NCBI GenBank assembly: GCA_048940605.1
Contig: JBHLOJ010000002.1
Coordinates: 17,742 to 81,741, forward strand
Length of the DNA stretch: 64,000 nt
From: Promethearchaeota archaeon
GTDB taxonomy: Archaea; Asgardarchaeota; Lokiarchaeia; Sigyniarchaeales; SOKP01
Reading direction: 5' to 3'
This document shows, piece after piece, positions 1 through 37,200 of this stretch. Under the pieces are notes generated by a model. That model made no database searches. It was given only the letters and a program-made list of their open reading frames with translations, and was not told the DNA's origin. The first letter of the stretch is position 1. Each line of letters begins with the position of its first letter. The position numbers were made by a program, and so were the translations under genes.

Positions 1-2772
1 CAAAGAATTACAAATTTTTAAATCGAAATTAAGTCTTATTTCTGAAGGTTCAATAGGTCTTCTTTCCCATTCTTGAATTAGTTTCTGCTTTTTTCTTCTT
101 TCTTTCCAAAAAGCTTTATATCGCTCTTGGAAATTTTTATCAAATTGTTCCATAAAAGAAGGAAAACTTTTTTTAGAAAATTCTTCAAAAATATCTCCTA
201 AAACTTTAATAAAATTGTCTTTTGGGCTTATCCTCATCTCATAAAAATCATAAAACCGTATGTCAATATATCTTCCAGTGGTCTCTTCTTTAAGTAGGAA
301 AAATTGCACTAAAAAGAGGATTGAATTTAATAGAACATTAAAGGCTTTAGCTCTGTCAAGATCCTTTTCTAAGACTACATTTAAAGTATTTGAAGGATGA
401 AATGTCTCATGGGAATAAAAAGAAATTAAATGGTTATTAGGGGAATAAGGATTAATTCGCCTCATTGTAACTATATTTGTCTCGATTTTATTTAATTCAT
501 ATTGAAGATTCTTCCAATAATTTTTCCATTGAAAATTTTTTGGAGGTCGAAATTGACTTGCTTTAATTATTCTATTGAGGTTTTTATAGGTAGAGTAAGA
601 TATATAATCTAATTTGTGAGTCAAATCGAATATATTTAACCCTGTTCCTGTTCTTAGTGTATTTTTCACAGCTACTTTTTCAATTTTAAAAGGTGTCTCT
701 AAATTAGTCTTTGCATATATATGATTTGTATCTTCATTATTAAAGCTCAAAAATGCATTTTTAATCCTTGAAGGATGAATATTTCGTGTAAAAAACATAA
801 AAGAGGATACTCCTTTAGGAACTGGGCGATATCCTTCTTTGAAATAATTATTTGGTAATGAGTCCATTTTGTCCTCAAAATTATCAATAAAAGAGACAAA
901 AATATCTCTGTTTTTAAAATCACACACACCGCAAAACCACATTAGGTTTACATACCGTTTTTTCAATTCATTTAATTGAAATGATTGAATGTCAATTTCC
1001 TTGCTTCGGTGGAAGTCTTTAACCTCAATTAGATTTGCGATATGGTCAATATCTGAAGGTTCAAGCTTTTTTAGATTTTTTTTTATTAGAATAAATTTCA
1101 CTTGATGATCCTCTGAAGGCTTTCTCTTTTTTGCTATAAAAAGGATATCACGATACTCTGACCATTCAGAAAAACCATAATTATAGATTGCCTTGATGAT
1201 ATATAAAGGAGTCCAATTAGAGAATATAAATTCTCTAACTTTCATGGCTTCAGTTCCTCTTAAAATGCTAATTGGAATAACAGCTCCAATCATCCCTTCA
1301 TTTTTAATAAATTCATCAATAAAGACTAAAAAATGCCCCCACAATCCTACTTGACTGCCAGAAAGTTCCACAAAACGATCCATTTGGATATATTTCTTAA
1401 TACCTCTTTCAAGTTTTGTAAATGGAGGATTCATTATTATATTATCAACTTTTCTTAGATCAATAGTTTGATTCTCACCTTTTATATCATAACCTTTACT
1501 CGTTGGGGGAAATAATGTAGTCTGTACTCCAGATGTATATTTAATTCTTTTTGAAAGTTTAAGGCTATCTCCTTGTATTATTTGTGTTCTTTCGATTCCA
1601 ACTGTAGGATCCATTGAAGCTAGATTTGCTGAAGTTAAGTGGACAGCGAAAGGCATAATATCAGAACCAAAGATCTCCTTTTCACAAAATTGCTTATGTG
1701 GGTTTCCCTTACCATTCTCTTTATTAAATAAATTTAGCTTTCTCCTATATGCAGAAGTAAGTATAGTTCCTGAACCACAAGCAGGATCATAGATAGTATC
1801 ACTACTTTTTTTAATGACTAATCTAGCTAATAAATCTGCAGCTTGTGGTCTGGTATAGAAAGCAGCTAGCAATTTTCTAATTTTTTTAGGCATCAATTCA
1901 TGGAAGATCCTCCCTGGCAATTCATATCTTAACCTTTCAATCTCAAGACCCCATATTAAATCAAATGTATCTTGAATATAATTAACTGGAATTACATTTA
2001 ATACATCAATCTTATATATCGGTCTATAATTTACATCTAAAATATTAGTAAAAGCTTCTCTGAGCCAATTATGATCAATTAATCCTGTTTTTTTTGGCAT
2101 AATACTAGGAAAGGTTCTTGAATATAATCTTAAGAAAAAAATTTGGCTCAAAATAATATAAGCAGCTAGAAATTCTGAAGTTTCAATAACTTGAGAGCGT
2201 TTTAAGGACCCTAAATTAGTAAGTAATTCTTGATTTGTAATAATTTTTAAGATTTCCTCATTCGTTATGTTAATATTGTCTATTAATTCTGTCACGTGGT
2301 TTTGAAGCAAATCAATCACGGTATCTAATGGATATCCTTTTTCTTCCCTTTTACTTATCCGGGGGACGATCTCTAACTCTAATTCTTTAAGAACTTGTGG
2401 AAACGTATTACTTCTTAATTCTTCTTTTAAGACGGGAGTATCTATTAAGCAAGTACATTTAAAAGTCTCGATAGACATCCTAATTTTATTTTCTGTGGGT
2501 TTAACGGACCGAATTTTATCTGGAATGAATAGAATCATACCGTATTCGATTTTTGCTTCCTCTTTATGCCGTTGATATTGAATAAACGCCTGCTTTAAAA
2601 TAGGAATAGTCTCTCCAATTTTTACACTCAATATCCATTTAATACCATAAAGATTAAAAATTATATCTGGTTCAGAATTTATTTTAATTTCGGATACCCC
2701 GGTGCCTCCCCTATCTTTTATGATATTAATTAATAATGGATAAGTGGTTCTTTCAGTAATTTTTAATGACAA
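1..2772 (-). CDS. Gamma-class N6-adenine DNA methyltransferase, a large single-chain Type IIG/IIL-like restriction-modification protein. Partial: the C-terminus lies beyond the window start.
   Basis: Not in the ORF track because it has no stop in the window. The minus-strand frame whose codons start at coordinates divisible by 3 is open from the in-frame stop at 2809-2811 down to position 1. By-eye translation gives motif I DPACGSGT (1765-1788), then motif IV IIMNPPFTK (NPPF = 1420-1431). About 475 more codons follow, a plausible target-recognition region. About 330 aa lie N-terminal to motif I, including EPDIIFNLYGIKWILSVKIGE, a possible PD-(D/E)xK-like nuclease core (weak). The first in-frame ATG is at 2538, and TTG at 2772 is the first canonical alternative start, so the start is uncertain. 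Confidence 0.8.
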   Translation of the reverse strand, partial: MSLKITERTTYPLLINIIKDRGGTGVSEIKINSEPDIIFNLYGIKWILSVKIGETIPILKQAFIQYQRHKEEAKIEYGMILFIPDKIRSVKPTENKIRMSIETFKCTCLIDTPVLKEELRSNTFPQVLKELELEIVPRISKREEKGYPLDTVIDLLQNHVTELIDNINITNEEILKIITNQELLTNLGSLKRSQVIETSEFLAAYIILSQIFFLRLYSRTFPSIMPKKTGLIDHNWLREAFTNILDVNYRPIYKIDVLNVIPVNYIQDTFDLIWGLEIERLRYELPGRIFHELMPKKIRKLLAAFYTRPQAADLLARLVIKKSSDTIYDPACGSGTILTSAYRRKLNLFNKENGKGNPHKQFCEKEIFGSDIMPFAVHLTSANLASMDPTVGIERTQIIQGDSLKLSKRIKYTSGVQTTLFPPTSKGYDIKGENQTIDLRKVDNIIMNPPFTKLERGIKKYIQMDRFVELSGSQVGLWGHFLVFIDEFIKNEGMIGAVIPISILRGTEAMKVREFIFSNWTPLYIIKAIYNYGFSEWSEYRDILFIAKKRKPSEDHQVKFILIKKNLKKLEPSDIDHIANLIEVKDFHRSKEIDIQSFQLNELKKRYVNLMWFCGVCDFKNRDIFVSFIDNFEDKMDSLPNNYFKEGYRPVPKGVSSFMFFTRNIHPSRIKNAFLSFNNEDTNHIYAKTNLETPFKIEKVAVKNTLRTGTGLNIFDLTHKLDYISYSTYKNLNRIIKASQFRPPKNFQWKNYWKNLQYELNKIETNIVTMRRINPYSPNNHLISFYSHETFHPSNTLNVVLEKDLDRAKAFNVLLNSILFLVQFFLLKEETTGRYIDIRFYDFYEMRISPKDNFIKVLGDIFEEFSKKSFPSFMEQFDKNFQERYKAFWKERRKKQKLIQEWERRPIEPSEIRLNFDLKICNSL

Positions 2773-3023
2773 GATTTGTCCTCCGAGTAATATTTGAAGA
2801 CCTTCATTTTAAATTTTTCTATTAAAGAATATTTATAGTCATGCTAAAATAAAACCTTTAAGGTGAAATGAAATTCATATCTGGCATTAACCTATAGGAT
2901 TAATTCAATTTTTTTAAAAATTGAGTATGGTTAAATCATATGGAATTTCTTAACTAAAAATAAAGATTGGAAAAGACTGTAGTTTTATTTATGATTTAAG
3001 ACTAATTTTTATGTTTTGAATTC

Positions 3024-4724
3024 TTATTTTCTTGGGAGAATAAATATCGCTAAAATAGTTTTTCTTTTAAATGGAATAGGATATGCTGAAATAGACAATT
3101 TCATTTCGGTCAGTATTTCATTAGCTTTATTCTCAATATCCTTGGTGAAATCACTCTTAAAATGGTATATAGGGTTTATAACTCCATTATCTTCAATACC
3201 ATACAAAATACAGTATCTTGTAAGTTTTTCTCCATCGAAATAACCATCTATCGTAGGTATTAAACGATCATTAACAAACCTAGCTAATTTTGGTGTAAAT
3301 GTATCTGCAGATTTAAAGTCTATAATATCTTCAGTTTCGCATATTCCTTCAGATTCAAATTCATAATTAATTTCTTCTGAAATAATAAGTTGAATTAAAA
3401 AGTCAAACATATCCAGTAAATATTCTTCCTTTGTCAATTTCTTCCAAAATTCACAATAACAATATTGAAGTAAAAATTTTGTTTTTTTACTTCTTGTATC
3501 CTGAATAATATCTAAAAATTCCTCGTTAAACTCTAAAATTTCATTAGAAATATCAATTTTATTATAAATTTGTAAACAGCCAATAGTAATAGGATCATCA
3601 GATGGTTTTAATCCCACATGTACAATCTCTATGGTATTATTTTCAAATATCGCCCTATAAATTAAATTAATAAGATCATGGTTTGGCTTAATTTTTAATC
3701 TCTTAGAAAAAAAGCATATAATAAAGCGAGGATTCTCCTTTTTAATAAATAAACTTCTTTCATTTGGTAAAATTTCATAGATTTTATCAATTTCTTCTTC
3801 ATATCTATAATTTTGAATAAATGATGTAATTTCTCCTAAAGCCTTATGAATCTCTTCAAATTTTTTTACGAATTTTCTAATTTTTTGCTTTTCAATAATA
3901 TAGAAATTGTAAAAATCTTTGAATGACATGATTTTTCTAAATACCATTACTTCTAATATTCTTCCGCTCTCTCTTCCGATTTTAATTTTTCCTGTAGATG
4001 TTAACTTTTTATTATTAATTAAATTGTCAATATCAGATGATTCCAATGGTTGCTGTATTGTATATTGATAATTATTTAATTCAATCTTAAATGATATATT
4101 TCCTAGATTTTCCCAACTAATATAATCAGGATCTATGCCCCAAAATTCTGCATGTCCTTTAGTCCATTTTTTACTATAAGAAAAAGAAGAAAAAACTAAA
4201 CCCTCATTTGTATTTTTTATTATATCTGCTCTCAATACATTTTTAGGATGCAGGATTATTTTAACAGTACGGATTTTATCATCTAACTCTGCTAAGGAAG
4301 AATCTTTTTTTGCATTAATTATGATTATATAATCTGGAAGTAATAAAATTGATACAATAGCTTTTATCTTTTCTTTTGAACGAGTCTTTAATGAACTTCT
4401 ATAAGTATCTATTAAATCTTCAATAATATCATTGTCCTTATTAGGATATTCAGCTCTCACTCTTCTTAATTTTCTTTTAACTGACGAATTTGAAGGTGTT
4501 ATTTCTTCAAACGATATCTTCTTACCAATTATTCTTTTTTCCAAATTCCTAATAACTTGCCTTAATTCTGCATCAGGTTCAATTTCATGGAAAATTAATC
4601 TGTCATCAGCAAGACTTTTAGGTTTAAAAGCAAATTTTTCCCAATAATAAATTTTACGCTTGATTTTTGTATCATTTTTACCCTTAGATGTATATTCATC
4701 TGGGAGATATTTATCTAAATTCAT
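3024..4724 (-). CDS. Hypothetical protein, 566 aa, family not recognised
   Basis: Long ORF in the track. It is on the same strand as, and between, the PLD nuclease gene and the methyltransferase gene. It is a soluble Lys/Ile/Glu-rich protein. The C-terminal ~100 aa (ETEDIIDFKSADTF...YCILYGIEDNGVINPI) loosely resemble the AlbA_2/Schlafen-type domain that is clear in ORF 11291..12841. This is a weak, by-eye match. Confidence 0.6.
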   Translation of the reverse strand: MNLDKYLPDEYTSKGKNDTKIKRKIYYWEKFAFKPKSLADDRLIFHEIEPDAELRQVIRNLEKRIIGKKISFEEITPSNSSVKRKLRRVRAEYPNKDNDIIEDLIDTYRSSLKTRSKEKIKAIVSILLLPDYIIIINAKKDSSLAELDDKIRTVKIILHPKNVLRADIIKNTNEGLVFSSFSYSKKWTKGHAEFWGIDPDYISWENLGNISFKIELNNYQYTIQQPLESSDIDNLINNKKLTSTGKIKIGRESGRILEVMVFRKIMSFKDFYNFYIIEKQKIRKFVKKFEEIHKALGEITSFIQNYRYEEEIDKIYEILPNERSLFIKKENPRFIICFFSKRLKIKPNHDLINLIYRAIFENNTIEIVHVGLKPSDDPITIGCLQIYNKIDISNEILEFNEEFLDIIQDTRSKKTKFLLQYCYCEFWKKLTKEEYLLDMFDFLIQLIISEEINYEFESEGICETEDIIDFKSADTFTPKLARFVNDRLIPTIDGYFDGEKLTRYCILYGIEDNGVINPIYHFKSDFTKDIENKANEILTEMKLSISAYPIPFKRKTILAIFILPRK

Positions 4725-5032
4725 ATTTACTTGATTTTTTTGTCTTAATTATGTGATTTACATTTAAAAAAAGAATATTTAAGTATTAAATAACTTCACA
4801 TTTATTTAAGCTATTTCACAAATTGATATATTAATTTTAAGAAAGATTGAAAGCACCTTAATTTAACTTATTGAATGGATTTTATGATTAAAAAAGATAA
4901 ATCAAAATTCGTAAGATAATAGAAAGATTAATGAAATTTATTTAAACATAATTAATACTATGGAAAAACTATACAATATCCATTCTTTGAATCGCCGCAC
5001 AGAATGAAATAAAAGACAAATCATGTAATATC

Positions 5033-6367
5033 TTACCAATTATTTTCAATATGATAATAATATTCTCGATTACAATATTCACAATAGAAATACGAACTTG
5101 CAAATTTAATTGGTAAAAAGCTGCGAAAACATTTAGGACATTGTTCAATAAGATAATCATCGCATGTAGAACAATAATATAATGAACCAGCAGATTCAAA
5201 TTCATCAAATTGTATAATTTTATCTTGATCTTCTTTCAAAATTCTTCCACACTTTGAACAATAATAAATTGGATCTATTTGTTTACATTCTTCAGAGAGT
5301 ATATCCACTTCATCATCTAATTCAGCTATTATTTCTGGATCAACATATTTGTAAAAATTGTTTTGGTAATCTCCATATTGCGCTTTGATTAAAGATCCTT
5401 GACAAATTAATTTATTTTTAGCAGGATCATAAAACAATTCCTTATTTGGACAATAGAAGACCGTTATAGGGCACTTTTGATCAAAATTTGTGCCTGATTC
5501 AAAGAAAGGACCTTTATTACAATCAGAGATAGGACCCATACAATGATTTTTCATATTCTTATATTCTATCCCATACTTATGACAAATAAAAGTTCTTGAG
5601 AAGTTGCAATCTTCTTTTTTGCATATAGGACAAAAATCCTCAACTTCACCTAAATGTAATAGCTTATTCCCCTTAATTCCTTTCCATTTGTAAGTCTCTA
5701 TTGTATGCTCAGATAATAACCACTCTTCCATCATTTCAGGAAAAGAAAAAACTGTTGGAACCTCCATCTTATTAACTTCTTTATATCCATAACCTAATAG
5801 GAATCTATTCTTTCGAAAAGTTCTAATATCTTTAATATAGACAAAAGGGGGAATTTCAAAAGGATTTAAATTTCCAAAAGTGTACCAAGCTCTCTTTTCA
5901 AATTCTATAGGTTTAAGCTTAAGCAAAACTGCTTCTTCGAAATTATATTTAGATTTATCTTTTGTTAGTTCTAAACTTGATGCTGTCATATTTGCTGATG
6001 TTAAAAGAATATATTTTTCATTGAAATATAGTTTAGTATGCAAATTTTTTACAACCCAGCAATTTCGAATATCTAATTTTGAAAAAGTGTGATTAAAGAT
6101 TGCTCTATTATGAAAATATTTATTAACATTTTCTCTTCCTATTAGTATAATATTTATCTTACCACTATTCTCTTCGAAGAATTTTAAAAGCTTTAATTCA
6201 TTAACAGCCGCCCAAGTCCAAAATGGAGTAATTAAACAGACGAATCTTCTTGCTTTATTGAGAATTTTCTCAAGAAGTATATCTTTTATTCTATCTTCAG
6301 TAATTATTCTTGCTTTATAATTCCATTTTTCAGACTTTAATTTTTCAAATATAGTTTTATCTTCCAT
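5033..6367 (-). CDS. PLD-superfamily (HKD motif) nuclease with a C-terminal array of zinc-ribbon CxxC pairs
   Basis: HTKLYFNEKYILLTSANMT (5986-6040; H is residue 110) fits the HxK-x4-(D/E)-x6-(G/T)SxN HKD signature of PLD/Nuc/NgoFVII-type nucleases. The C-terminal half carries several CxxC pairs (CPICKKEDC, CSKCGR, CSTCDDYLIEQCPKC, CEYCNREY) that suggest three or four zinc ribbons. Confidence 0.7.
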   Translation of the reverse strand: MEDKTIFEKLKSEKWNYKARIITEDRIKDILLEKILNKARRFVCLITPFWTWAAVNELKLLKFFEENSGKINIILIGRENVNKYFHNRAIFNHTFSKLDIRNCWVVKNLHTKLYFNEKYILLTSANMTASSLELTKDKSKYNFEEAVLLKLKPIEFEKRAWYTFGNLNPFEIPPFVYIKDIRTFRKNRFLLGYGYKEVNKMEVPTVFSFPEMMEEWLLSEHTIETYKWKGIKGNKLLHLGEVEDFCPICKKEDCNFSRTFICHKYGIEYKNMKNHCMGPISDCNKGPFFESGTNFDQKCPITVFYCPNKELFYDPAKNKLICQGSLIKAQYGDYQNNFYKYVDPEIIAELDDEVDILSEECKQIDPIYYCSKCGRILKEDQDKIIQFDEFESAGSLYYCSTCDDYLIEQCPKCFRSFLPIKFASSYFYCEYCNREYYYHIENNW

Positions 6368-6533: not shown

Positions 6534-6809
6534 ATGTCAACAAGAAGAGAAAAAGAGCAGATGTATTCTGCATTTTATACTAGCTTGAAAAATATTCTTT
6601 ATAATAGTGCGGGCTATAATATAGAAGGCGTTGCCAGATGGGGATCTCGAACTACGGGAGACTACAGAGGTGATAGCGATTTGGATGTGATATTCTGGAT
6701 AATCGGAAAACCTATTAAACAGAAGGTTTATGAAAATCTTATCCAGAAACAGCAGGTAAGCAGTGCCATAGCCATTTCATTACTGAGGAGAAAAATGAAT
6801 AAGGAATAG
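6534..6809 (+). CDS. Minimal nucleotidyltransferase (Pol-beta superfamily, MNT-like), short or possibly truncated
   Basis: WGSRTTGDYRGDSDLDV (6642-6689) matches the G-S-x(9-13)-D-x-D nucleotidyltransferase signature. At 91 aa it is short, and the last ~20 aa look unlike the family. No HEPN-like partner ORF is adjacent. Confidence 0.5.
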   Translation: MSTRREKEQMYSAFYTSLKNILYNSAGYNIEGVARWGSRTTGDYRGDSDLDVIFWIIGKPIKQKVYENLIQKQQVSSAIAISLLRRKMNKE

Positions 6810-6908: not shown

Positions 6909-9900
6909 TTAACCTACGATTAGTTGTTCTATTACTTCCATTATTCTAGTAGTTTCTTTAGTCAAGTAATCGGCTAAATTTTCAGATATTCTTTCTTTAT
7001 TTAGATACCAGTTAATTTTCCATATAACTCGTTCTAATTTCCACTGAACGCAGTTTAATATGTATTCACTATCTTCTTCCATATCAATCTTAAAGAGTGC
7101 ACTTTCTAACATCTTTGAAGCACAATAGACCTTCCAGCTAAGATATTTACCTGTACAGGAAGAGATTTCTTCTTCAATGAAATCACTTAAGTTAAGTAAA
7201 TCGACCTCTAGATAGGCGATGTCATAAGCCTGTTCGGAACCAGTAGAAGCTCCCATTAAAATCACGATATTATTCCTTATAGCGTGTAGTGTATCTATAA
7301 TATATTCAGTGTGTTCGTCGCTCATATGACAACACTTATTATTACAATACTTATTATGAAAATGCCTATTATAGAGTTCATTCCTAAACTCAACGATTTG
7401 TACAAAAACCTTAGCCATCTTATCATTGTATAAAGTACAGGTGATTTCGCCGTTTTCCACCGATGAGAAAGCTTCAACTAAGTGTTCTTGAGCTTTTGAA
7501 AGCTTCCTATTGAGACATCGACTTTTTCTGCATGAGAAAATCTCATCAACATAAGCCTTTAACTCCTCTATTTGCCAATCAACATACTCATACATATTTC
7601 CTAATGAAATTTCAAAATTCCCAGATATCGAATTTATTAAATTATCGTTAGGACGATCATTATCCCCATCAATTGCCTTAATTTGAACGTTATGAATGCC
7701 TTTATTCAGTATCCATTGATTTAACAAAACAAAATAATATATATCACCATTTTGAGAGCTGTATAAGGGCTTAATAACTTGCCCATTAACTATGAAAGTG
7801 AAAGTATCTATCCCACTGTAATCTGATGCATTTAATGTAAGGTATATATGGTGAATATCCAGTGTAATAATTAAATCAGATAAATTTGGAGGGTCTTTAT
7901 CATCATCTTCAATATTAAACAATATTGAAAATGAATTTGTCTCCTCATCACCATCCCACCCATCATCATCATTATTTTCCACGCTTAAGATAGCTGAATA
8001 TTCACCAAGTTCAAAAATTGGAACTTGATTTACGTCAATTATAAATGTACCCTCAGCATAGGTTTCTGAGAATAGTATACCCTCTTGATCTTCAATAATT
8101 AGTTCTCCTGTAGCTTCACTATTCTCATCAGGGTCACGAATCTTAAATTCTAGAGTACCTGGTTGACCATCTGTACTTTCCCCCTCATGATCTAAAAATA
8201 TTTGAGGCGGTGTAAGATCATCATCTTCAATAATAATCGTTAATCTCTTGGTCTTTCTATAAATCTTGTCATACTTTTCAGTGGAAACGGTGATTTCTGG
8301 ATTTATATATTTAGGAGGGCTATTTACAGGAATTCTTATCTCAATAGGAATCTCTTTAATTTCTATAGGATCTAGTTCAATATCGATCCCTTGACTCACC
8401 AAGTCTATATTTTCTATCAAGAATTGAATATCTTCGGATTCATCTAAGCTAATATGGGTCATAACAGGTTCTTCTATAAGATTTGTGATAGTCAATGAAA
8501 TAGTAGCATTCTCCCCGTTAAACAGTTCACAAATACTTGGTTGTAAGCTTAATTCTATTAAATTAGAATATTGACTAGAGCTTATTTCGAAGACGGTTAC
8601 TTCACTAGGATTTTCTGCTGTTCTTACAAGTTGTTCACTACTCATTACGATCATTTCCATTACTTCAGCATTATTACTCACAACTACCCTTGATTCTTCA
8701 TTTGAATCGTTGATGAATTGCTCGACTTGCTGATTAAAGGATAAAAGACTAAAATCTAGAAATGTATCTATGATTTCTTCGGCGTCTCGTTCAGTATAGT
8801 TATTTTTAATTAGTACTCCCTTAAACTGTTCATAAAGAGTAACATTATTAATGATATCAATTTGAATGGTGGAGATTTCTTGAACGATGCCGTCGAAATC
8901 AATTCCCTCATTATTTATTATTATTTCAGGAGTAAGATTATCCATGTAGTCTTCTAAGTGCGTAATGTATGAGTGATAAAAGTTTGACTGGATTAGGGTA
9001 TAATTCTTTACCGCCTCTGCTTGAATTTTTGCTGCATTATAATTACCAACCATCATTGCATAAGTATACCTTTCGATGGAAATTTTGATGGCTTCAGTCG
9101 CAGTAATAAACAGATTCTGAGCTTCATATACAGCATGTAAATTTCTTAAAGTTTGAGACTCCGATACATTGTTAGGTAAAGGATCAATATAAATTTCCTC
9201 AATTTCAACAACCTCTTCTATATTAGGATCAGGAGGATCTTCAATAATTGATTGAATTAACGCTCTAATTCTAGCTTCTTCACCATCCTCAAGGTCGTTA
9301 TATCTATCCTCTTCATAATCCCAATATATACCTATTGAATCAAGTAATATTGATAAGCCATTTAAGAAATCATCAAGAAGATCATAAACATCAGCAAATA
9401 TATCGACAAGCAACGCACCAATATCAAGAATCAAGGCAGCCCAATTAGCCCATTTCCCAAGGTCGTTCATATTATCAGCTTGATTCCTGTAATATTCTGC
9501 TAATTGATTGCTTTCTTGAATAAAATCCGCATATGAAATTTTTAGATGGGGAATATGGACGAGAAATTGTTGTGTTATTTTAGAATCTGTTTCATCATCT
9601 TGAATCCATACTTGAAATTCTAAATCCCTTTCTGTGGAATAAACTTCTCCAGACTCCTTATCACACCAATCCCATTCATGTAATTGAATTCGACTCCCAT
9701 TGCTCAAATATCTATCATATCCCGGGATGAGATATGGAGTATCTCTATAGGTTAAATCGGTAATGTTAGATACTCCTAAGCTAAATTTTTTATTACTGTT
9801 GGCTGGAATGTCTCCGATGTTTTCAACAACTAACATATATTCTGGATCATCTGTAAAATACCTAGTATACATTATATGAATTGCATTCACTTGTAGACCG

Positions 9901-10967
9901 GTAGGATTATGGACAGTCCCATTTATACGGCATAATTCCGTAGGATTAATCCACCCAGGATCTAATATCTCTTGTTCAATATAGATTTTCAAATTTGATA
10001 TATAGGGTTTTGAGGGATTAATCTGAATTACCTGATAATTAGTTATATACTTTAAATGATCATGAGATAATTTAACTCGGTAATACACCCGTTGATTACT
10101 TAGTATTGTAGAACTAAAATCCGTGTAAAAAAAAGAATGACTTGTTCCTGTTGAAAGAGTTACATTGCCTGTCCTAAAAATATGCCATGTATACCCATCA
10201 GTACTTTTTTCTAGTTCATAAGTTGCGTTATAAGGTTCTGATAGGGTGTATGTATTCAGGTTACTGACAGTAAAATTAATATCATACATCTCATTGGTAC
10301 TTGCCTCAGTTTTATTGATTTCAAAAGAAGAAACCTCTGATATAGGATAGGAGGAAAGCGCAGAGTTAAGGCAAGAATAGTCAGGATCAAGTGCAGATAT
10401 GTGATTATCAGCAGTAATATTTAAAATTAAAGTGTTTGTCATGTGATAATTTTTATGGTACCAATAACCACCACCAAAAGGACTACTATATATAATAAAA
10501 ACTCGAACATAAAGATGACATTCAACTTCAATCTCCTGCCCAGGCACAACATATATCGGTTTCAGTGTATCCACTAAATTGAAACTATGAGGAGAGGATA
10601 TAGGTATCACTGTTGGTACAGCAAGATAAGTAATTGTTAATTCGCATATTTCAATTACCGCACCATATCCGGCATAAATTAAATCAGCTATTGAAGTTTT
10701 CTCAAAGAAATCTTCAACGTCAAAGGAAGATTGCCATGTTACTTCAGTCTGTATTATTTCGGGACTAGGCCATTGGTTGCTTCCAGATAATAATGGATCT
10801 ATTACTTCAGATTTATCATTTTCAGTTTCAACTTTGAAAAAAGCAGAATTTGGATCAACTGCGATTACCAATTGATTACTACATAATACAATAGCACAAA
10901 TCAAAATTGATCTTATCTTTTGGTGTTTTTTCATATAGATTTCACTACCATTTATATTGTAGATCAC
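6909..10967 (-). CDS. Large secreted acidic protein (1352 aa in the track; more likely 1341 aa from ATG 10934), function unknown
   Basis: From the internal Met at 10934 the sequence MKKHQKIRSILICAIVLCSNQLVIAV reads as a classic signal peptide. The protein is beta-rich and Asp/Glu/Asn-rich with N-x-S/T sequons. It has Ig-like segments bounded by DDDLTPP and DDDKDPP, and a helical, Cys-containing C-terminal region (CRKSRC, CNNKCC). Confidence 0.75.
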   Translation of the reverse strand: MIYNINGSEIYMKKHQKIRSILICAIVLCSNQLVIAVDPNSAFFKVETENDKSEVIDPLLSGSNQWPSPEIIQTEVTWQSSFDVEDFFEKTSIADLIYAGYGAVIEICELTITYLAVPTVIPISSPHSFNLVDTLKPIYVVPGQEIEVECHLYVRVFIIYSSPFGGGYWYHKNYHMTNTLILNITADNHISALDPDYSCLNSALSSYPISEVSSFEINKTEASTNEMYDINFTVSNLNTYTLSEPYNATYELEKSTDGYTWHIFRTGNVTLSTGTSHSFFYTDFSSTILSNQRVYYRVKLSHDHLKYITNYQVIQINPSKPYISNLKIYIEQEILDPGWINPTELCRINGTVHNPTGLQVNAIHIMYTRYFTDDPEYMLVVENIGDIPANSNKKFSLGVSNITDLTYRDTPYLIPGYDRYLSNGSRIQLHEWDWCDKESGEVYSTERDLEFQVWIQDDETDSKITQQFLVHIPHLKISYADFIQESNQLAEYYRNQADNMNDLGKWANWAALILDIGALLVDIFADVYDLLDDFLNGLSILLDSIGIYWDYEEDRYNDLEDGEEARIRALIQSIIEDPPDPNIEEVVEIEEIYIDPLPNNVSESQTLRNLHAVYEAQNLFITATEAIKISIERYTYAMMVGNYNAAKIQAEAVKNYTLIQSNFYHSYITHLEDYMDNLTPEIIINNEGIDFDGIVQEISTIQIDIINNVTLYEQFKGVLIKNNYTERDAEEIIDTFLDFSLLSFNQQVEQFINDSNEESRVVVSNNAEVMEMIVMSSEQLVRTAENPSEVTVFEISSSQYSNLIELSLQPSICELFNGENATISLTITNLIEEPVMTHISLDESEDIQFLIENIDLVSQGIDIELDPIEIKEIPIEIRIPVNSPPKYINPEITVSTEKYDKIYRKTKRLTIIIEDDDLTPPQIFLDHEGESTDGQPGTLEFKIRDPDENSEATGELIIEDQEGILFSETYAEGTFIIDVNQVPIFELGEYSAILSVENNDDDGWDGDEETNSFSILFNIEDDDKDPPNLSDLIITLDIHHIYLTLNASDYSGIDTFTFIVNGQVIKPLYSSQNGDIYYFVLLNQWILNKGIHNVQIKAIDGDNDRPNDNLINSISGNFEISLGNMYEYVDWQIEELKAYVDEIFSCRKSRCLNRKLSKAQEHLVEAFSSVENGEITCTLYNDKMAKVFVQIVEFRNELYNRHFHNKYCNNKCCHMSDEHTEYIIDTLHAIRNNIVILMGASTGSEQAYDIAYLEVDLLNLSDFIEEEISSCTGKYLSWKVYCASKMLESALFKIDMEEDSEYILNCVQWKLERVIWKINWYLNKERISENLADYLTKETTRIMEVIEQLIVG

Positions 10968-11290: not shown

Positions 11291-12841
11291 TTACTGGTTT
11301 GAAATTCCTTTTAAGACTACCATGAAATCATAATTGTCGCGATCTTGAGCTTTTTTTTCATATAGAATTTCTTCATCATCGTAATATTCTATCCCTGTTG
11401 ATTCTCTTTTAGGATAGAAATGAGCCCCGTCCTCTTTAGAAAATACTTTTTTAACATCTTTCGTTTGTTTGATAACAATTAATATACAATCCTTCATAAG
11501 ACCATCCTCATTGGAAAGCTTAACATCCACTATTTCAAAGAACTTAGTGAACTTTCTTACATGATTTCTAATTATCTCATATAATTCTTTTTTTTTATTC
11601 TCGATATCGTCTAAGCCAAAGATCTTCCTTGGAATTTTATCTGATATACCAATAAGAAGCACACCTCCCATTGAGTTAGCAAATGCACAAACATGCTTAC
11701 AAAATTTTAATTTACTTTCCTTCTGAACCTTTCTCTCATTAGACTTCCACCATTCAAATGTCTGCTTAAAATCCCAATAATCGTGCTCAGTTTTTTCAAG
11801 AACATTTGTAATAAATTTTCTCCAGAAGGTATCATTATGAATTTCTCGAAACCACCTATCATATATTCGAGTTACCCTTTTCGATTCTTTCCTGCTTAAT
11901 ATTGAAAAACTTAATTTTTTCGAATTTTTCAATTCATTTTTAAATCCTAATTTCAAATCCTTAAACGAGGATAAAGCATCTAAGACTTTTTGAGAATTTT
12001 CTTTATTTATTGTCTGATGGTATAGAATAAAATTCAAATTTTCTATATAGGTATCTATAATTGTAATTATATCAAAGGAACCTTTTGATTTAAATAAAAC
12101 ATAAATTTTATACAAGTCAAATTTAAATTGTGCACTTTTTAATATATCAAACAAATCCATATAAAGGATTTGACGCAGATCTAGGATAATCTTTTCAAAA
12201 TCCACTTTGCTTAAGTAATTTATATCATTTTTAATTGATTTAATCGTGTTCCTCATCGTTTCATCCAATTTAAAGACCTCTGATTTAATAATATTTTCTA
12301 CAGACCAGCGAAATCGTTTAATGTATTCTTCTTCTTGTCCAAGGACAAAAAACATACTGTGGAGGATTAATATACTACCTATTATGATAAAAATAACCTG
12401 ATTATAAAGACTAGATTCAAGCATATCCAAAACAAAAGTATAACGATATAACAAAAAATCAGCAAGATAACATATTGGAAACAATGTTATTAAAATAAAC
12501 CTTAAAAAATTGAATACACTTCTATTTTTCATATATGTATCTGCTTTTTTGTACCATTTAGTTAAAGTCTCTTGAAATTCATTGTCATTAGTTACCACGC
12601 CGTTTTTCAGAAGATTTGAGAGAGGTTTCAAAAAATTTCTATGATGATCCCAACTATTGACTTTCCAAGAATAATAATTTCTTGAGACTAAAGTGAAAAT
12701 CAATAAAATTAAAACTAGAGACCATAGCATAAAATATGCATCAATAGTAGTAAAAATACTGGCATCAATTGCGAAATAGCTAAGAGACAAAATAAATGAA
12801 ATTATTGAAGTATAAAGATAAAAACTACTAATATTAAACAC
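11291..12841 (-). CDS. Membrane protein (about 4 TM helices) with a C-terminal AlbA_2/Schlafen-like (divergent AAA_4 N-terminal type) domain
   Basis: GTG start at 12841. The N-terminal third has hydrophobic helices (SIISFILSLSYFAI, MLWSLVLILLIFTLV, FILITLFPICYLADFLL, VIFIIIGSILILHSMFFVL). The C-terminus DYWDFKQTF...KHVCAFANSMGGVLLIGISDK (core at about 11643-11690) matches the E-x-EFK ... AFANxxGGxLxIGV signature of the AlbA_2 family, recalled from memory. Confidence 0.7.
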   Translation of the reverse strand: MFNISSFYLYTSIISFILSLSYFAIDASIFTTIDAYFMLWSLVLILLIFTLVSRNYYSWKVNSWDHHRNFLKPLSNLLKNGVVTNDNEFQETLTKWYKKADTYMKNRSVFNFLRFILITLFPICYLADFLLYRYTFVLDMLESSLYNQVIFIIIGSILILHSMFFVLGQEEEYIKRFRWSVENIIKSEVFKLDETMRNTIKSIKNDINYLSKVDFEKIILDLRQILYMDLFDILKSAQFKFDLYKIYVLFKSKGSFDIITIIDTYIENLNFILYHQTINKENSQKVLDALSSFKDLKLGFKNELKNSKKLSFSILSRKESKRVTRIYDRWFREIHNDTFWRKFITNVLEKTEHDYWDFKQTFEWWKSNERKVQKESKLKFCKHVCAFANSMGGVLLIGISDKIPRKIFGLDDIENKKKELYEIIRNHVRKFTKFFEIVDVKLSNEDGLMKDCILIVIKQTKDVKKVFSKEDGAHFYPKRESTGIEYYDDEEILYEKKAQDRDNYDFMVVLKGISNQ

Positions 12842-31299: not shown

Positions 31300-34200
31300 A
31301 TGAGTAAAAGCACAAAAACTAAAAAAGAGTATGAGAGAGAGCTTTCAAAAATGATTCGTTCTCCTTCTGTGGATACTTCATTTGAAAAGGTAAAGATTAA
31401 TTATTCACTAGATAATTATAATCTGACTACTCTCGATAATGAGATAGATCAGATAAGATCTTCTGGATTGAAACAAACACAAGTTTCAGCAAAATATACC
31501 CAAAAATCAATAGAAAAAGTTGACAAAACGGATGAAATTACGAAACATCAAGATCTCCCAAAAGATCATTTACCTTCTTTGCAATTATTCAAAAACAAAG
31601 AAATTAAGATTACAGAAAAAAAAGAACCTCAAGGAAAATATCAATATTATTTTAGTTTTATAATCCTAGCCTTGATATTTTCAGCGCCGTCCATTCTCAG
31701 TTTTCTTATTCTTTTCTATTTAAATAATCCATTACAAGAATCTCTTTATGTTCTAATTCCTTTATATTTATTTTTATCAGTATTTTGTGCTTTTAAAGGG
31801 GCGTATTATTACTTCAACATAATCAAGAAACAGAGGAGACTTAAATTAGAATCCCGAAGATCAAAACCGAAGTTCCAAGAAGTGTTTAGTAGGTTAAGTT
31901 TAAAAGATAGTACACTTAAAGTTATCACTGTTTCTTTTTCCTTTTTACTGTTCTTTTGCGGGTATATGAACATCCTCTTTTTTTCTAATACTAAGGGAGA
32001 TATTTTACTATTAATCCTATTGGAAATTACCTATTATGTAATTTTTACCATCAACCACAATATTATGAAAGATAATGGAAGATCTCTACAACAATTATTC
32101 ATTGCTGCTAGCGTAGCAGGTACTTTCCTTGGAGCTCTCATACTCTTTGCCGTTAATAATTTAAAACCATTATTGGTTGTCTTTCCTGTGGTTATCTTTG
32201 TATCCTATTTAGTATATAAAAATATCCTTGTTAAGACAATTGTATTCCTTTGTTGTATCACAGGATTAGGTTTTTTTAGTCTTTTTATATATAACATAGT
32301 TAGCACCTATTTAGTTGATGTATTTACTACTAAGTTCCCATTCAAAGCTCCTATTTTTCTAGGTGGTTTCAATAACACTGTGCTATTTATCCTTACTTTT
32401 TTCATAGGATTAATAGTAATCTACTTAATGGTCCGTAAGAAATTTATTCAAGTTCTCCAATTCTTGCCATTAGTTGGTCTTTTGGGCAGTATTTGGATTT
32501 ATTATCATAATTTTTCTAGTAATAGGCTACCTGAAGATGTTTCAGCTCTATTTTTATTGATCCCTATCATTTTCTATTCTCTTTTTTTAGTCTTTATCTT
32601 TAAAAATCGTATTTTAGATCTTTTTGCTCAGTTTTTTATGTTAATATCATCTTTGAGTCTACCAATCATTCTAGCCATTTTAGCACTACAAGAAAATTAT
32701 GGTGATGCCCAGTTTTTAATACCTTTCTGGACGATTGTATTTTCTATTCTTGCGGTGTTATTCGCACCATTATATGAAGTAAAACCAAGGAGATCTTCAA
32801 CTCAAAAGCAAAATGGGATTTATGGGTTGAAATATCATGAAATTAAGTTCCCTCTTCTATGGACATTTACTCTTGGTCTTACCGTAAGCCTATGTTATGT
32901 TTTCATTATGATCCCCCAGTGGCAATTTATACCAGTACTAGGTATAATTTGTTCCATTCTCTTATTCACTATTAAAGCAAAATCTATCAAAGTAAAAGTA
33001 ATAAAATTACTACAAAAAAGAAAGTATAAATTATATAATATTAAAAATAAATCCACAGTTAAAACTCCTTATTTTGAGGATAAGCATGTTCGAATAGCAC
33101 TTTTAATGATTATTTTCCTTAATTTATATTCCTTAATTTTCTCTGTAAATTCGCTAGCATCGGTTAGCTCTCCAAATTTTGAGTTTGCAAGAGTTCCGCA
33201 AGAAAATGGGCTTAATCTCGCCTCTATTAATTATGGATCTCTAGAATATTCCTCCTCTCTCAACGATTTCGATGGAATGTCAATTAATGATAAATTTATT
33301 ATAAAATGTAAAGTATCTCTGGATTTTGGAGAGACTTCGCTTGTAAGAGTGCGCATAATTCCACAAGATGTACCATCAATAGAGGGATTTCGGATACTAA
33401 AATCTTATGAAATTTCTTCCAAGTATCTCACAGGTCCTAAAAAGGATTATGAGATAATTACTCAAATACCCTTAAATAAATTTGATTTGGCTCCTGGAAC
33501 TTATAAAGTTGAGGTTTATTATAGTGTACTAACTGGATTTGGGTGTCGTTCTTCGTCACCCCAAATATATGAGCTGATTCTTGTTAGGGATAATTTATAC
33601 GTAATCCCGACTGAGCCTTTCAATGAGCCAATTGAAGATGGGTTCCATTACAATTCAGTTTATACCTTTGAATATGAAATAAATGGAAAACTTTGCTGGA
33701 ATGTAATTTTTGATGGAAGAATTCAAAATTCTGCTCAGAGAACAGTTTCATTAGATAATCTCGAATTATTCATTGAAGAAAATGATCGGTATGTGAATAT
33801 TGCTAACATAAGCACCGATAGCAGAGGTAGATTTTATTACAACCACACTGTATTTGGTTCAATCGAAAAAAATCAAATGGTAAAAATAGAATCTTCCTGC
33901 AAAAGCGAATTCTATAATCCCTTATTTTATGAAGAATTTGGAGGTTTAGAGACCCCCATTTCTGATGAAAGGGTGTTTAGGGACGAAGACATGAATCTTT
34001 ATCCTGATTGGGACTATACCCTTTATGATTTTATTAAGGTTCTTACAAGCAGTTCAGAAGGAGCACCTCCTTCCTCTCTTGCGTTCATGGCTGAGTTTTC
34101 AGAATCTGAAGGTTCAACGACTACAGATATTATTAATAATTTAGAAGGCACAATTGAGGGTAATACAACATGGACTACTGCTGGAAAACGTGATTCTGCT

Positions 34201-37200
34201 CTTTCTTTCGATGGAGATGGTATTGTTTCTAGCAGTGGTGGAGGTAGTTCTGTAAGTAATTGGCATGCTGAATCTGATAGTGAGCAATCGATTACCAGCT
34301 CAAGTTATGTGGAAAAGCACACTTTAGATTTTATAGCTCCCGCAGAAGGCGATTATTTAATTATTGTAAGCTGTGAAGTGACTCCTGCAGTAACCGAGTA
34401 TTCGATAGGAGTTAGAGCTCAATTGGATGATACTACTACTATGATGGAAGCTTTATATGAAGGTGTGAATTCAAATCGAGACTATGAATATAAGTGCGAG
34501 TCAACAATGTACGTGGCAGAAAGTTTAGGAAGCGGTTCTCATTCAATTGATATAGATGCGAAACAGGAAGGCGGTACGGGGTATATTCGTTATGCCCGTA
34601 TTGTCGTATTACGGCTTGATGATTGGCTTGATAGCTCTGGGATGTATGAATATGCCGCAAATGAAGGAGCGATTTCTCTTGCCGGTTCCGAAGGTTCCTA
34701 TAGTGATGCAGTTTCCATAACCTTTACTCCCGATACAGCAGGAGATTATTTAGTATTAGCGAGCATGGAAATGTATTGTGGATATGCGGGCGATACCATT
34801 TGTGGACGAATTGATTATGATAGCGGTGCTGAATATCTCCCTGTAGATAATACTGAAGAAAGTTATGAAAATTATGTGACTTATGAATCCAAAGATACTA
34901 CCGATTGGCATTCATTTATGTGGGGTGGTATTGTCAATATGCCTACCAGTTCCAAGACCTTTAAAGTACAAGCCTGTAGAACGGGAGGTTCGAATGGGAA
35001 TGCTGATGTGAGAAAACGGAGGGTTATCGCTATTCGACTAGGGGCGATGGGTGATGACACCCAATCAACTGAAGATGCTTCAAATACGCCAACCACCAGT
35101 CAATGGGCAGATAAATCAACCATACAATTTACTCCTTCCTCTCAACAAGATTATTTTATCATCGGTGGAATGGTCATCAAGCCTGATTCAACCAGTTATC
35201 CTTCTCATGCCGAGGTAACCCATACCGTAGGTACAAGTACCGGTACAATCAGTGTAATGAATGTTGATTCGAAGGACTCTGGAAATCCTGCCGATTGTAT
35301 CCCAATGATGGGTATTGCTATTAAAGAACTGAACGCAGAATCCCAAACTTTTAAGACTCGATATGGGTATGCAGGGAGCAGCGGAACCACTTACGGAAAA
35401 GGAAGCTTTATCATAGCAGTTCCTTTAGGTAGTGGCGGAGAAAATGGTTCAACCTATGAAGATTTCGATTATGTGGATTGGAATGATGTACTGGATGATG
35501 ATCTCGATAATGTATTTGTAATTACAAGCTGGATTTATCCAACCTCATTTACGTCTAATGAAAGTGATAATGGAGTTAAAAATGTCTTTTTCTCGAAAGA
35601 AGGAATTATTGAATTGGGAGTAAATGAGACTGGATTTGTTGAAATTTTTCTGAGCACTAATTCTGTAGAAACTACTGCTTCATATGGGTTTCCAGGAGCT
35701 GTGGCCCTTCATACGTGGAACTATTTAGTTCTTCGCTTTAATGACAGTGGAAATGATGTTGATGTGCTTATTGGAGATACCTGGTGTAGAGAAGCCATAG
35801 GTGCAACCGCAGAACCGTGGGGTGGTGGCGGTGCTCTTAAAGAAGGTGGAAAACTTATTATTGGTGCTGAAATCTCCTCTTATCGTTCCTTTACAGGGAT
35901 TTTAGATGATATTTCAGTATTTAATAGCTCCATTTCAGACGCAGCAATAAAAAGTCATGCAGGTGGTCCGTTCCTTGCCATCGACGTTACCGTGTATAAA
36001 GAAGATAATCAAGTTGGTTGGACACCGATAACAGTTTCAGGGCAAACGATAAACGGGTATCTAAATTTTCAATGTAATAGTACCGGTAAACCTATCGATT
36101 TATTAGAATTTTACCTGACAGGCGAGCAACCAGATTTGCAGAATCCTACTCCTGAAGAGTGGAATCTTTTAACTTCATATAATTATCATGACGAATTGTA
36201 TTCTTTTGTCGAAGAAAGCAATAATCTTCCAGACAACTCTTCCTGGTATTTTATAGCGAAAGCAACGGATGATTTAGGGAATTTTGTGTATGATTATTAT
36301 AGTACCTATTTTAAGATTGATCATTTTGATGAGCTTATTAATTTCACCTATATTGATAAAGAAGGACGAATTAATCATAACTCTCAGATAGGTTTGAATA
36401 TTGATCATGACTACCAATGGCATTTTGATTCCTTAAGTTTATTTATTAACAGATCTGGAGATATTGATTTCTTATCTTCTTATAATTATACCGAACTGCT
36501 CTCTAATTATTGGTTAATCAATTTAGATTCGATATCAGGCTGGATAGATGATAATAATTTAACTGCTGGCAATTATGATATTAATTTTATTGTTGAAGTA
36601 AATCTTACCTATGGCTCTGAGTTTTCTTCCTATTATGTGAATTATACTTTGAATAACACGATTTTAGATATAAAAGGACCAGATATGGAATTGCTTACTG
36701 GTCCAACTTATACTTTCACTCCTGAAGCAACTTATGATAGTATAGAAAGTAATTTGCTGACCTTAGCAATTAACTCTACTGATAATGATTTTTGGTATGT
36801 AGATGTTGAATATAAATATACAACTCCTCTAACTGCTAATTGGATTAAATATGGTTCATTTATGGTTCAAAATTCTCGTGCAGATATAGTTCTTGATATT
36901 TCTGAGTTGGCAGATGATAATATCACTCTCCAGTTTACTGGTTTTGATCATTTGTCAAATAGCAAGGTATTATTAAACTCAACATATTGGTTTATTAAGG
37001 ATTTTAATAATCATGAAAAGTTTACCATAGAAGGTTTAAGCGATTCTTTATATGGTTTAAACTCAAATGATATGCTAGACTTGGAATTAAAAATAGTTCC
37101 AGAAGATAATGATATTAAAAAAGTCACTGTGAGCACTTGTTATGAAAGTTTTTCTCTTGAAAACATTTCATCAGAGCAAAATTACATTTACTTTACCGAT

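Follow-up and report, generated by a model that had tools for sequence, protein, structure and literature searches.

The stretch of DNA analysed here, called the window in its whole length of 64,000 nucleotides, comes from a Promethearchaeota archaeon (GenBank assembly GCA_048940605.1, contig JBHLOJ010000002.1, positions 17,742 to 81,741). Its G+C content is about 30% and it contains zero tRNA genes. We focused on positions 1-6367, where three intact genes all lie on the minus strand. They encode a methyltransferase related to Type IIG restriction-modification (RM) enzymes (1..2772), a protein of 566 amino acids (aa) referred to as p566 (3024..4724), and a 444-aa protein with a single-HKD phospholipase D (PLD) domain and a Cys-rich, putative zinc-ribbon C-terminal half, here named PLD-ZnR (5033..6367). 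The two spacers are AT-rich, measuring 308 nt between the PLD gene and p566 (4725..5032, minus strand) and 251 nt between p566 and the methyltransferase gene (2773..3023, minus strand), and direct reading of the sequence finds a run of T after each of the two stop codons. By exact-sequence look-up with p566, identical DNA was found on two Logan contigs (L001/L002), which continue 4.8 kb past the left window edge. The recovered sequence completes the methyltransferase to 953 aa (L001 3997-6858) and reveals its left neighbours; only 29 aa and the stop codon lie outside the window, which encodes aa 1-924. The reading frame stays open from 2808 leftwards to the window edge, and its start maps to a TTG at 2772, a choice backed by the N-termini of homologues. 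A GGAGG motif stands 7 nt upstream of this TTG, with no such motif before p566 or the PLD gene, and could mark a leadered or an internal-operon position of the gene. A preliminary description of this DNA, made from the sequence alone, had reported three co-oriented minus-strand genes with spacers of about 250-300 nt; since the open reading frames (ORFs), spacers and motifs were re-read and the same DNA was recovered on L001/L002, that description is accurate.

The methyltransferase gene encodes a solitary enzyme with the architecture of the Type IIG enzyme BpuSI, in which an N-terminal nuclease fold is followed by a connector, a gamma-class N6-adenine methyltransferase domain and a C-terminal target-recognition domain (TRD). 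The methyltransferase domain (1093..1872) matches Pfam N6_Mtase at 6.4e-15, and its profile and fold matches are to HsdM, M.BseCI, CamA and PglX. The N6-adenine motifs read earlier, DPACGSGT and then NPPF, are found as motif I at 1765..1788 and motif IV at 1420..1431 (both minus strand), and each is invariant in 116 homologues. More than 1120 homologues were found altogether, and the best 120 of them are mostly about 950 aa long, 48-63% identical over the full length and spread over many bacterial and archaeal phyla. The AlphaFold2 model, built from a 24-sequence alignment, has a predicted local distance difference test score (pLDDT) of 84 and a predicted template modelling score (pTM) of 0.81. 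When this model was compared with the PDB by Foldseek, BpuSI (3S1S) was the top match, aligned end to end with E 5.6e-23, followed by CamA, M.BseCI, HsdM, PglX/BrxX and BsaXI. The presumed TRD (1..1092, aa ~560-924 in the window) falls inside the full-length BpuSI alignment and inside those with CamA and M.BseCI, which span methyltransferase plus TRD, and the pLDDT of the C-terminal region is mostly above 90.

Residues 1-125 of the model (2398..2772) are arranged as alpha-beta-beta-beta-alpha-beta, with D36 opening strand 2 and S49-V50-K51 within strand 3. Among the 116 homologues, E7, E28, P35-D36, V50-K51, Q65 and E72 are nearly invariant. At position 49, however, D or E never occurs; the residue there is S (91 sequences, 78%), G (21 sequences, 18%), P (3) or A (1). 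The nuclease motif of the family (P35-D36...S49-V50-K51, 2620..2670, minus strand) therefore reads PD-x12-(S/G)VK, and the acid of the canonical PD...(D/E)xK motif is not present. The canonical form PD...EVK occurs in two distantly related proteins, one encoded on a Methanothermobacter plasmid (30% identity) and one from Altiarchaeales (28%); the plasmid search found a single distant relative of the methyltransferase, on an archaeal plasmid. From the fold order, the conserved residues and the EVK of the distant relatives, we conclude that the N-terminal domain is a true PD-(D/E)xK homologue under strong constraint. The fused, Type IIG-like organization proposed in the preliminary description is thus borne out by the N-terminal fold and by BpuSI as the best solved-structure match over the full length. 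Because of the motif PD-x12-(S/G)VK, cleavage activity is uncertain, and judging from the alignment this subfamily would either have moved its third acidic residue or have lost cleavage. Position 54, which is E or D in 89% of the 116 homologues, may be a stand-in for the missing acid. Cfr10I offers a precedent, as a distant Glu complements its PD...SVK site. The replacement of the catalytic acid by S/G is also the first point that can be raised for a non-defence account of the locus, which would have an orphan regulatory methyltransferase, a nucleoid-type p566 and a lipid-acting or housekeeping PLD protein; on the whole of the evidence, including that on the other two proteins given below, we consider this account unlikely.

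Compared with known enzymes, the 953-aa protein shares its domain order with RM.BpuSI (Type IIG/IIS), its best structural match over the whole length, which is composed of a nuclease, a helical connector, a gamma-type methyltransferase and a TRD and carries a PD-x15-ExK motif (PMC3185434). The identity between the two is just 13%, however, and the window protein has PD-x12-(S/G)VK as its nuclease motif and NPPF, not NPPY, as its motif IV. Moreover, BpuSI was cloned along with M1 and M2, two methyltransferase genes distinct from its own (PMC3185434), whereas the window family is solitary. MmeI is a solitary single-polypeptide RM enzyme with no companion methyltransferase (see PMC4833311). The MmeI family (Type IIL), so described, has its solitary state, size (~920-950 aa) and domain order in common with the 953-aa protein, whose organization is in this respect closer to the MmeI type than to BpuSI. 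Membership of the MmeI family was rejected, as MmeI_N, MmeI_hel, MmeI_TRD and MmeI_C gave no match and MmeI_Mtase reached 16.9 bits against a cut-off of 27. Assignment to MAD2 of MADS or PglX of BREX was likewise rejected, with NCBIfam scores of 36.9 against 720 and 15.6 against 400, respectively, and no conserved neighbours. In two loci the ~950-aa family copies are split into two or three ORFs (L017 1466..4324 and L039 about 8001..10828) and appear to be genes in decay, a common fate of RM enzymes.

The second protein, p566, gave no above-threshold match in Pfam, NCBIfam or PADLOC and is not in PADLOC-DB v2, in agreement with the earlier description of it as unassigned. The 25 members of its close family are both bacterial and archaeal, including Caldisericum, Methanoregula, Euryarchaeota and Actinobacteria. 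A profile search of 1.84 billion representatives gave 136 clusters, mostly full length (~510-625 aa) and with the same end-to-end architecture, while the remainder are shorter and fragment-like. We prepared a broad alignment of 50 sequences with 15-43% identity (A4) and an alignment of the C-terminal domain (A5). In A4, only K470 and G508 are invariant, and E464 and E/D468 (the window protein has D) belong to a set of eleven near-invariant columns; others in this set include the N-terminal H136, N161, E181, K328, H368 and N387. The conserved columns of A5 are E464, E/D468, K470 and the glycine of GI(E/D)(E/D), giving a C-terminal consensus E-x4-E-F-K-S...G-I-(D/E)-(E/D). Five independent weak signals from sequences and models agree on the register of this consensus and suggest a Schlafen/AlbA_2 signature, of which the motif E-x4-(E/D)-(F/Y)-K and a downstream acidic residue in G-x-(D/E) are characteristic.

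Pfam SLFN_AlbA_2 has weak matches in 13 of 24 p566 members, the best at 1.2e-4 and below the Pfam cut-off. For the p566 model (pLDDT 79.5, pTM 0.50), the top Foldseek PDB match is the SAMD9 AlbA_2 domain 7KSP, with E 0.028 and probability 1.0. The full-length broad profile has SLFN13 (5YD0) as its sole match in the PDB, with E..EFK and G.D aligned, and the profile of the C-terminal domain alone finds SLFN13, SLFN11 (two entries) and SLFN14; the matches of both profiles are in register, at HMMER E 0.05-1. Finally, hhalign of the A4 and A5 profiles with the two bona fide AlbA_2 proteins of the locus paired the same motifs, without significance; an earlier run with the A3 profile had aligned unrelated regions. 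The close family profile found nothing among the PDB sequences. The Schlafen/AlbA_2-like domain would occupy aa ~460-566 (3024..3347, minus strand), with E464, D468, K470 and E510/D511 as predicted catalytic residues. According to PMC12680541, the RNase active site of AlbA_2 is built from three to four acidic residues, and in bacteria these domains show a significant association with defence.

To the N-terminal ~455 aa of p566, the library scans assigned no family. In the Foldseek search, a part of ~200 residues weakly and non-significantly resembled the nucleoid protein YejK. The fold search against viral structures gave nothing significant, its weak match of ~100 beta-rich residues being to the beta-barrel domains of giant-virus EF1A-type GTPases. 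Both matches are treated as model-based leads for this region. An internal duplication like the N-lobe and C-lobe of Schlafens was not detected by hhalign between five segments of p566, and homologues of p566 were found neither in viral contigs nor on plasmids. A nucleoid-type p566, as the non-defence account would have it, could cite the YejK resemblance, the crystallization of the SAMD9 AlbA_2 as a DNA-binding domain (7KSP) and the housekeeping genes that neighbour some p566 loci. Against this, the acidic, putatively Schlafen-type motif is strongly conserved, and homologues of p566 lie inside RM operons.

The gene neighbourhoods of p566 were collected from six places by exact look-up and from 22 metagenome loci. 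RM linkage was found in about 14 of 25 distinct loci, with the window counted. Type I RM genes adjoin p566 homologues in eight loci (L004, L006, L013, L045, L049, L050, L057 and L062), and in three of these the gene order is hsdM-p566-hsdS, with ends that abut or overlap in L013 and L050 and with small ORFs intervening in L045. A Type III system is the neighbour in L010, and in L047 (539..7061) the homologue stands by a DUF1156 methylase and a DUF499 protein, an RM-like pair distinct from Type I. Other neighbours are an Eco57I/TaqI_C methylase (L052), an HSDR_N fragment (L053) and an N6_N4 methylase with an EVE protein (L042). The remaining homologues lie by Shedu (L003), by SIR2 proteins (L008, L061) or by housekeeping genes, or on contigs that are too short. 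In L004 (295..12680) the Type I RM operon is split by three genes, encoding a DprA-like protein, a 1046-aa reverse-transcriptase-like protein and the p566 homologue, and is a nested defence island.

These contexts match published observations. Of the prokaryotic Schlafen homologues associated with defence, more than 50% show linkage to RM systems or other nucleases (PMC13462974), and a gene lodged within a Type I RM operon often serves in defence, with PrrC as the textbook example (10.1101/2024.01.29.577857). With the RM-linked prokaryotic Schlafens (clusters 4 and 7 of PMC13462974, Cash, and the AlbA_2 of Avs9), p566 shares the tight RM association and probably the acidic motif. It differs from them in several ways. 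In cluster 4, unknown domains lie C-terminal to the Schlafen domain, whereas in p566 the Schlafen-like part comes last, after ~455 aa; no ATPase, CARF or NACHT domain was detected in p566; its similarity is below the Pfam threshold; and the window subfamily has the spacing E-x3-[DE].

The genomic logic of PrrC and EcoprrI, a nuclease gene within an hsdM/hsdS/hsdR operon, is also that of p566, a putative nuclease, in L013, L045 and L050. However, PrrC is made of an ABC ATPase and a PrrC nuclease domain, neither of which p566 matched in Pfam or PADLOC, and p566 is also found away from Type I systems whereas PrrC/EcoprrI is Type I-embedded. PrrC is an RNA-targeting abortive-infection effector, a role that for p566 is predicted. 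A PrrC-type anticodon nuclease was thus rejected as an identification, the embedding alone being in common.

A functional pair is another matter, in which the Type IIG-like enzyme would silence the Schlafen nuclease p566 until a viral anti-restriction factor released it, PLD-ZnR being unrelated. PrrC is the precedent for such a pair of RM system and guard (10.1101/2024.01.29.577857; PMC3458546), the window enzyme has an HsdM-type methyltransferase domain, and homologues of p566 lie inside or beside Type I operons (L013 and L050, abutting, as well as L045, L057, L049, L006 and L004). The GGAGG before the methyltransferase start could fit co-transcription with p566, although the 251-nt spacer between them contains a T-run. 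Moreover, p566 is present in 0 of 25 other loci of the methyltransferase family, and it also occurs by Type III RM, DUF1156/DUF499, SIR2 or Shedu genes, or alone, which fits hitch-hiking or a generic trigger better. We regard the pair as conceivable, at odds of well below even. Similarly tentative is a broader form of the idea, that the p566 family is an undescribed guard of restriction systems, in which a Schlafen-type tRNA/RNA nuclease with a new ~455-aa sensor region would be silenced by HsdM-type modules (Type I or IIG) and freed when a virus disables restriction.

The third protein, PLD-ZnR, belongs to a family of 13 members, in all of which H110-x-K112-x3-N116-E117-x6-S124-A125-N126 is invariant. 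This HKD motif (5990..6040) lies in a PLDc_2-like domain (aa 1-165, 5873..6367; both minus strand); the PLD superfamily is characterised by HxK(x)4D/E...(G/T)SxN in such a domain. The Pfam PLDc_2 score is 18.1 bits against a cut-off of 27, yet the model matches 9 of the 13 family members, and hhalign of the family profile with a Pfam-annotated 165-aa PLDc_2 protein gave a probability of 97.1% and E 6e-11 with the HKD motifs aligned. In the Cys/His-rich region (aa 238-432, 5072..5656, minus strand), C246, C249, C262, H275, C276, C283, C299 and C306 are conserved in all 11 full-length members, as are C370-x2-C373...C399-x2-C402 and C410-x2-C413...C429. These residues form an 8-10-ligand Cys/His cluster (H238 to C306), a CxxC...CxxC cluster (C370 to C402) and a CxxC...C(xxC) cluster (C410 to C429), which from their conservation are predicted to be zinc ribbons. 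The PLD-ZnR profile found only zinc-finger noise among PDB sequences, and no homologues were seen in viral contigs. No membrane segments are visible by eye.

A protein with a single HKD per chain needs a dimer to build its active site, as in Nuc and BfiI, and since PLD-ZnR has one HKD motif per chain, it must dimerize for this purpose. It shares with BfiI an N-terminal PLD domain and a presumed nucleic-acid-binding C-terminal part, but the latter is B3-like in BfiI and a Cys-rich zinc-ribbon region in PLD-ZnR. The earlier view of a PLD/HKD protein with zinc ribbons, unlike BfiI, proved right at the level of sequence motifs (HKD, hhalign and Cys clusters). A BfiI-type enzyme was rejected on account of this Cys-rich half and of the lack of a methyltransferase beside the PLD homologues (L014, L015, L016 and L065). 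DpdK of the Dpd system was also rejected (NCBIfam PLD score 18.8 bits, with >=100 for the equivalog).

The four places where PLD contexts were obtained differ in their neighbours. In L015 the homologue is flanked by a TPR protein and GmrSD, and McrBC is close by; in L016 it follows a DUF4238 protein. Neighbouring genes for TFIIB and Ras/Roc/Arf-type GTPases suggest Asgard hosts, and the family is probably Asgard-only and stand-alone. Housekeeping neighbours, present at some PLD loci, are the remaining point in favour of a non-defence role; they are set against the defence island around the L015 homologue and against the zinc ribbons and the lack of visible membrane segments. For the locus as a whole, the families are patchy, rare (13 PLD members and 136 p566 clusters) and cross-phylum, which is typical of accessory mobile genes.

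The preliminary description had suggested that the three genes might constitute an RM system in which a separate PLD protein serves as the endonuclease, or else a new multi-component module. We gathered contexts family by family, for the methyltransferase from 23 genome loci together with its closest homologue (63% identity, L064) and the plasmid copy, so that 65 loci were available in total, L001/L002 being the window's own sequence. In tblastn searches with the three proteins, no two families occurred together in any of the 63 non-self loci, and only L001/L002 contained more than one. The p566 and PLD-ZnR genes were in none of the 25 methyltransferase-family loci, the methyltransferase and PLD-ZnR genes in none of the 33 p566-family loci (~24 distinct), and the p566 and methyltransferase genes in none of the four PLD-family loci. 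The partner-less loci include the closest relatives with usable context, at 79% identity for p566, 63% for the methyltransferase and 55% for PLD. The 79%-identity homologue of p566 adjoins a SIR2-like gene and an unknown gene, with no trio partner beside it; a small PLDc_2 protein ~8 kb away is unrelated. In addition, all-against-all clustering of the neighbours of the 23 methyltransferase loci gave no family common to more than two loci, and neither L064 nor plasmid pRMAS01 has a conserved neighbour.

As the trio is together in none of the 63 non-self loci, and a lack of co-occurrence had been set in advance as the result that would speak against it, the three-gene module fails, and a conserved module of this kind was rejected on the co-occurrence searches and the neighbour clustering. 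The idea of a single system could still appeal to the co-orientation and adjacency of the genes in the window genome, to the missing acid of the methyltransferase's nuclease motif, which could leave room for a separate nuclease, and to DISARM, which joins a PLD protein and a methylase. On the other side stand, besides the co-occurrence results, the always solitary methyltransferase family, the strong conservation of its nuclease-like domain, and the absence of a methyltransferase beside PLD homologues. We consider a single system highly improbable, the least likely of the accounts discussed here. DISARM itself resembles the locus in having a PLD-superfamily protein near an adenine methyltransferase, but here the two are together in no other locus examined. 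It was rejected because a scan of six proteins from the region and its immediate flank gave no match to the DrmA helicase or to DrmB (DUF1998), as the preliminary description, which found its core genes absent, had stated.

We therefore favour another explanation and think it probable that the locus is a small defence island of three independent, co-oriented single-gene modules, whose lack of linkage is also in keeping with the T-runs in the 251-nt and 308-nt spacers. First, the 953-aa protein would be a self-contained RM enzyme of the Type IIG/IIL kind, with nuclease, helical connector, gamma methyltransferase and C-terminal recognition parts; by analogy with BpuSI and MmeI, this one polypeptide would methylate host sites and, at a distance, cleave foreign DNA that is unmethylated. 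Second, p566 would be a nuclease effector of the Schlafen/AlbA_2 type fused to a presumed sensor or regulator of ~455 aa. By analogy with Schlafen tRNases and PrrC, it would most likely act as a second-line RNase causing abortive infection, and its position beside a Type IIG gene would reflect the family's habit of RM neighbourhoods rather than a dedicated complex. Third, PLD-ZnR would be a stand-alone single-HKD dimeric enzyme, most likely a nuclease, since its zinc modules probably bind nucleic acid. In this picture the gene structures, motifs, fold matches and neighbourhood statistics are observed, while every enzymatic activity, the RNA substrate and the roles in defence are inferred.

Several points weigh against this explanation. 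The acid is missing from the nuclease motif in all 116 close homologues, and the enzyme may only methylate. For p566, each Schlafen signal is weak taken singly (Pfam below cut-off, Foldseek E 0.028, HMMER E 0.05-1, hhalign non-significant), and the spacing in the window subfamily is E-x3-[DE] (E-x3-D in the window protein), while the canonical one is E-x4-E. The linkage counts of p566 are approximate, because most loci are short metagenomic contigs. Two of the four other PLD contexts (L014 and L065) have no recognizable defence genes. Lastly, the GGAGG before the methyltransferase start could mean co-transcription with p566.

The surroundings of the trio contain further genes of interest. A divergent ORF of 91 aa (p91, 6534..6809, plus strand) encodes a solitary minimal nucleotidyltransferase-like protein (GS...DxD) with weak matches to Polbeta, MntA and PDC-S09. 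It is the flank of the island and not part of the trio; the ORFs around it show no HEPN partner, and it may be a toxin-antitoxin remnant. It is followed on the minus strand by a 1352-aa acidic protein with a signal-peptide-like N-terminus (6909..10967), which has no Pfam, NCBIfam or PADLOC match. Then p516 (11291..12841, minus strand) combines a hydrophobic N-terminal half, read by eye as membrane segments, with a bona fide AlbA_2/Schlafen domain (Pfam SLFN_AlbA_2 2.5e-14; motif E-x4-D-F-K...GISD). Just left of the window, a convergent gene encodes a 368-aa AlbA_2 protein (L001 7464..8570), adjoined on the same strand by the gene of a 726-aa protein with N-terminal leucine-rich repeats and an unassigned C-terminal half (L001 8786..10966), and the two could be a pair. 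Thus three proteins of the Schlafen/AlbA_2 type, namely p516, p566 and the 368-aa protein, lie within ~15 kb and are not detectably paralogous.

The remainder of the window is not defence-like. From an ATG at 31300, one uninterrupted plus-strand frame of at least 10,900 codons (31300..64000) runs off the right end. Hydrophobic, membrane-like segments abound in its N-terminus, no peptide of eight residues (8-mer) occurs twice, and the only matches in its first 8000 residues are Laminin_G_3 and, below threshold, Big_3_3. It has the appearance of a giant Asgard surface protein.

Since a three-gene system is very unlikely, there is no new multi-component defence system to record, and the novelty is modest: the locus holds three uncharacterised families of known kinds, with p566 as the most interesting piece. 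The methyltransferase belongs to a very large, cross-phylum and solitary Type IIG-like family with S/G in place of the catalytic Glu, and thereby provides a natural test of active-site migration or loss of cleavage. The PLD-plus-zinc-ribbon protein, which seems to be restricted to Asgard archaea, would enlarge the little-known set of defence genes in the prokaryotes most closely related to eukaryotes. As a rare Schlafen-like protein found in Type I RM operons of both bacteria and archaea, p566 could extend the recently recognised link between Schlafen RNases and restriction and offer a tractable candidate. If it does act as a guard of restriction, the strategy of PrrC would have been reinvented with an effector of the human SLFN11/SAMD9 type in Asgard archaea and bacteria.

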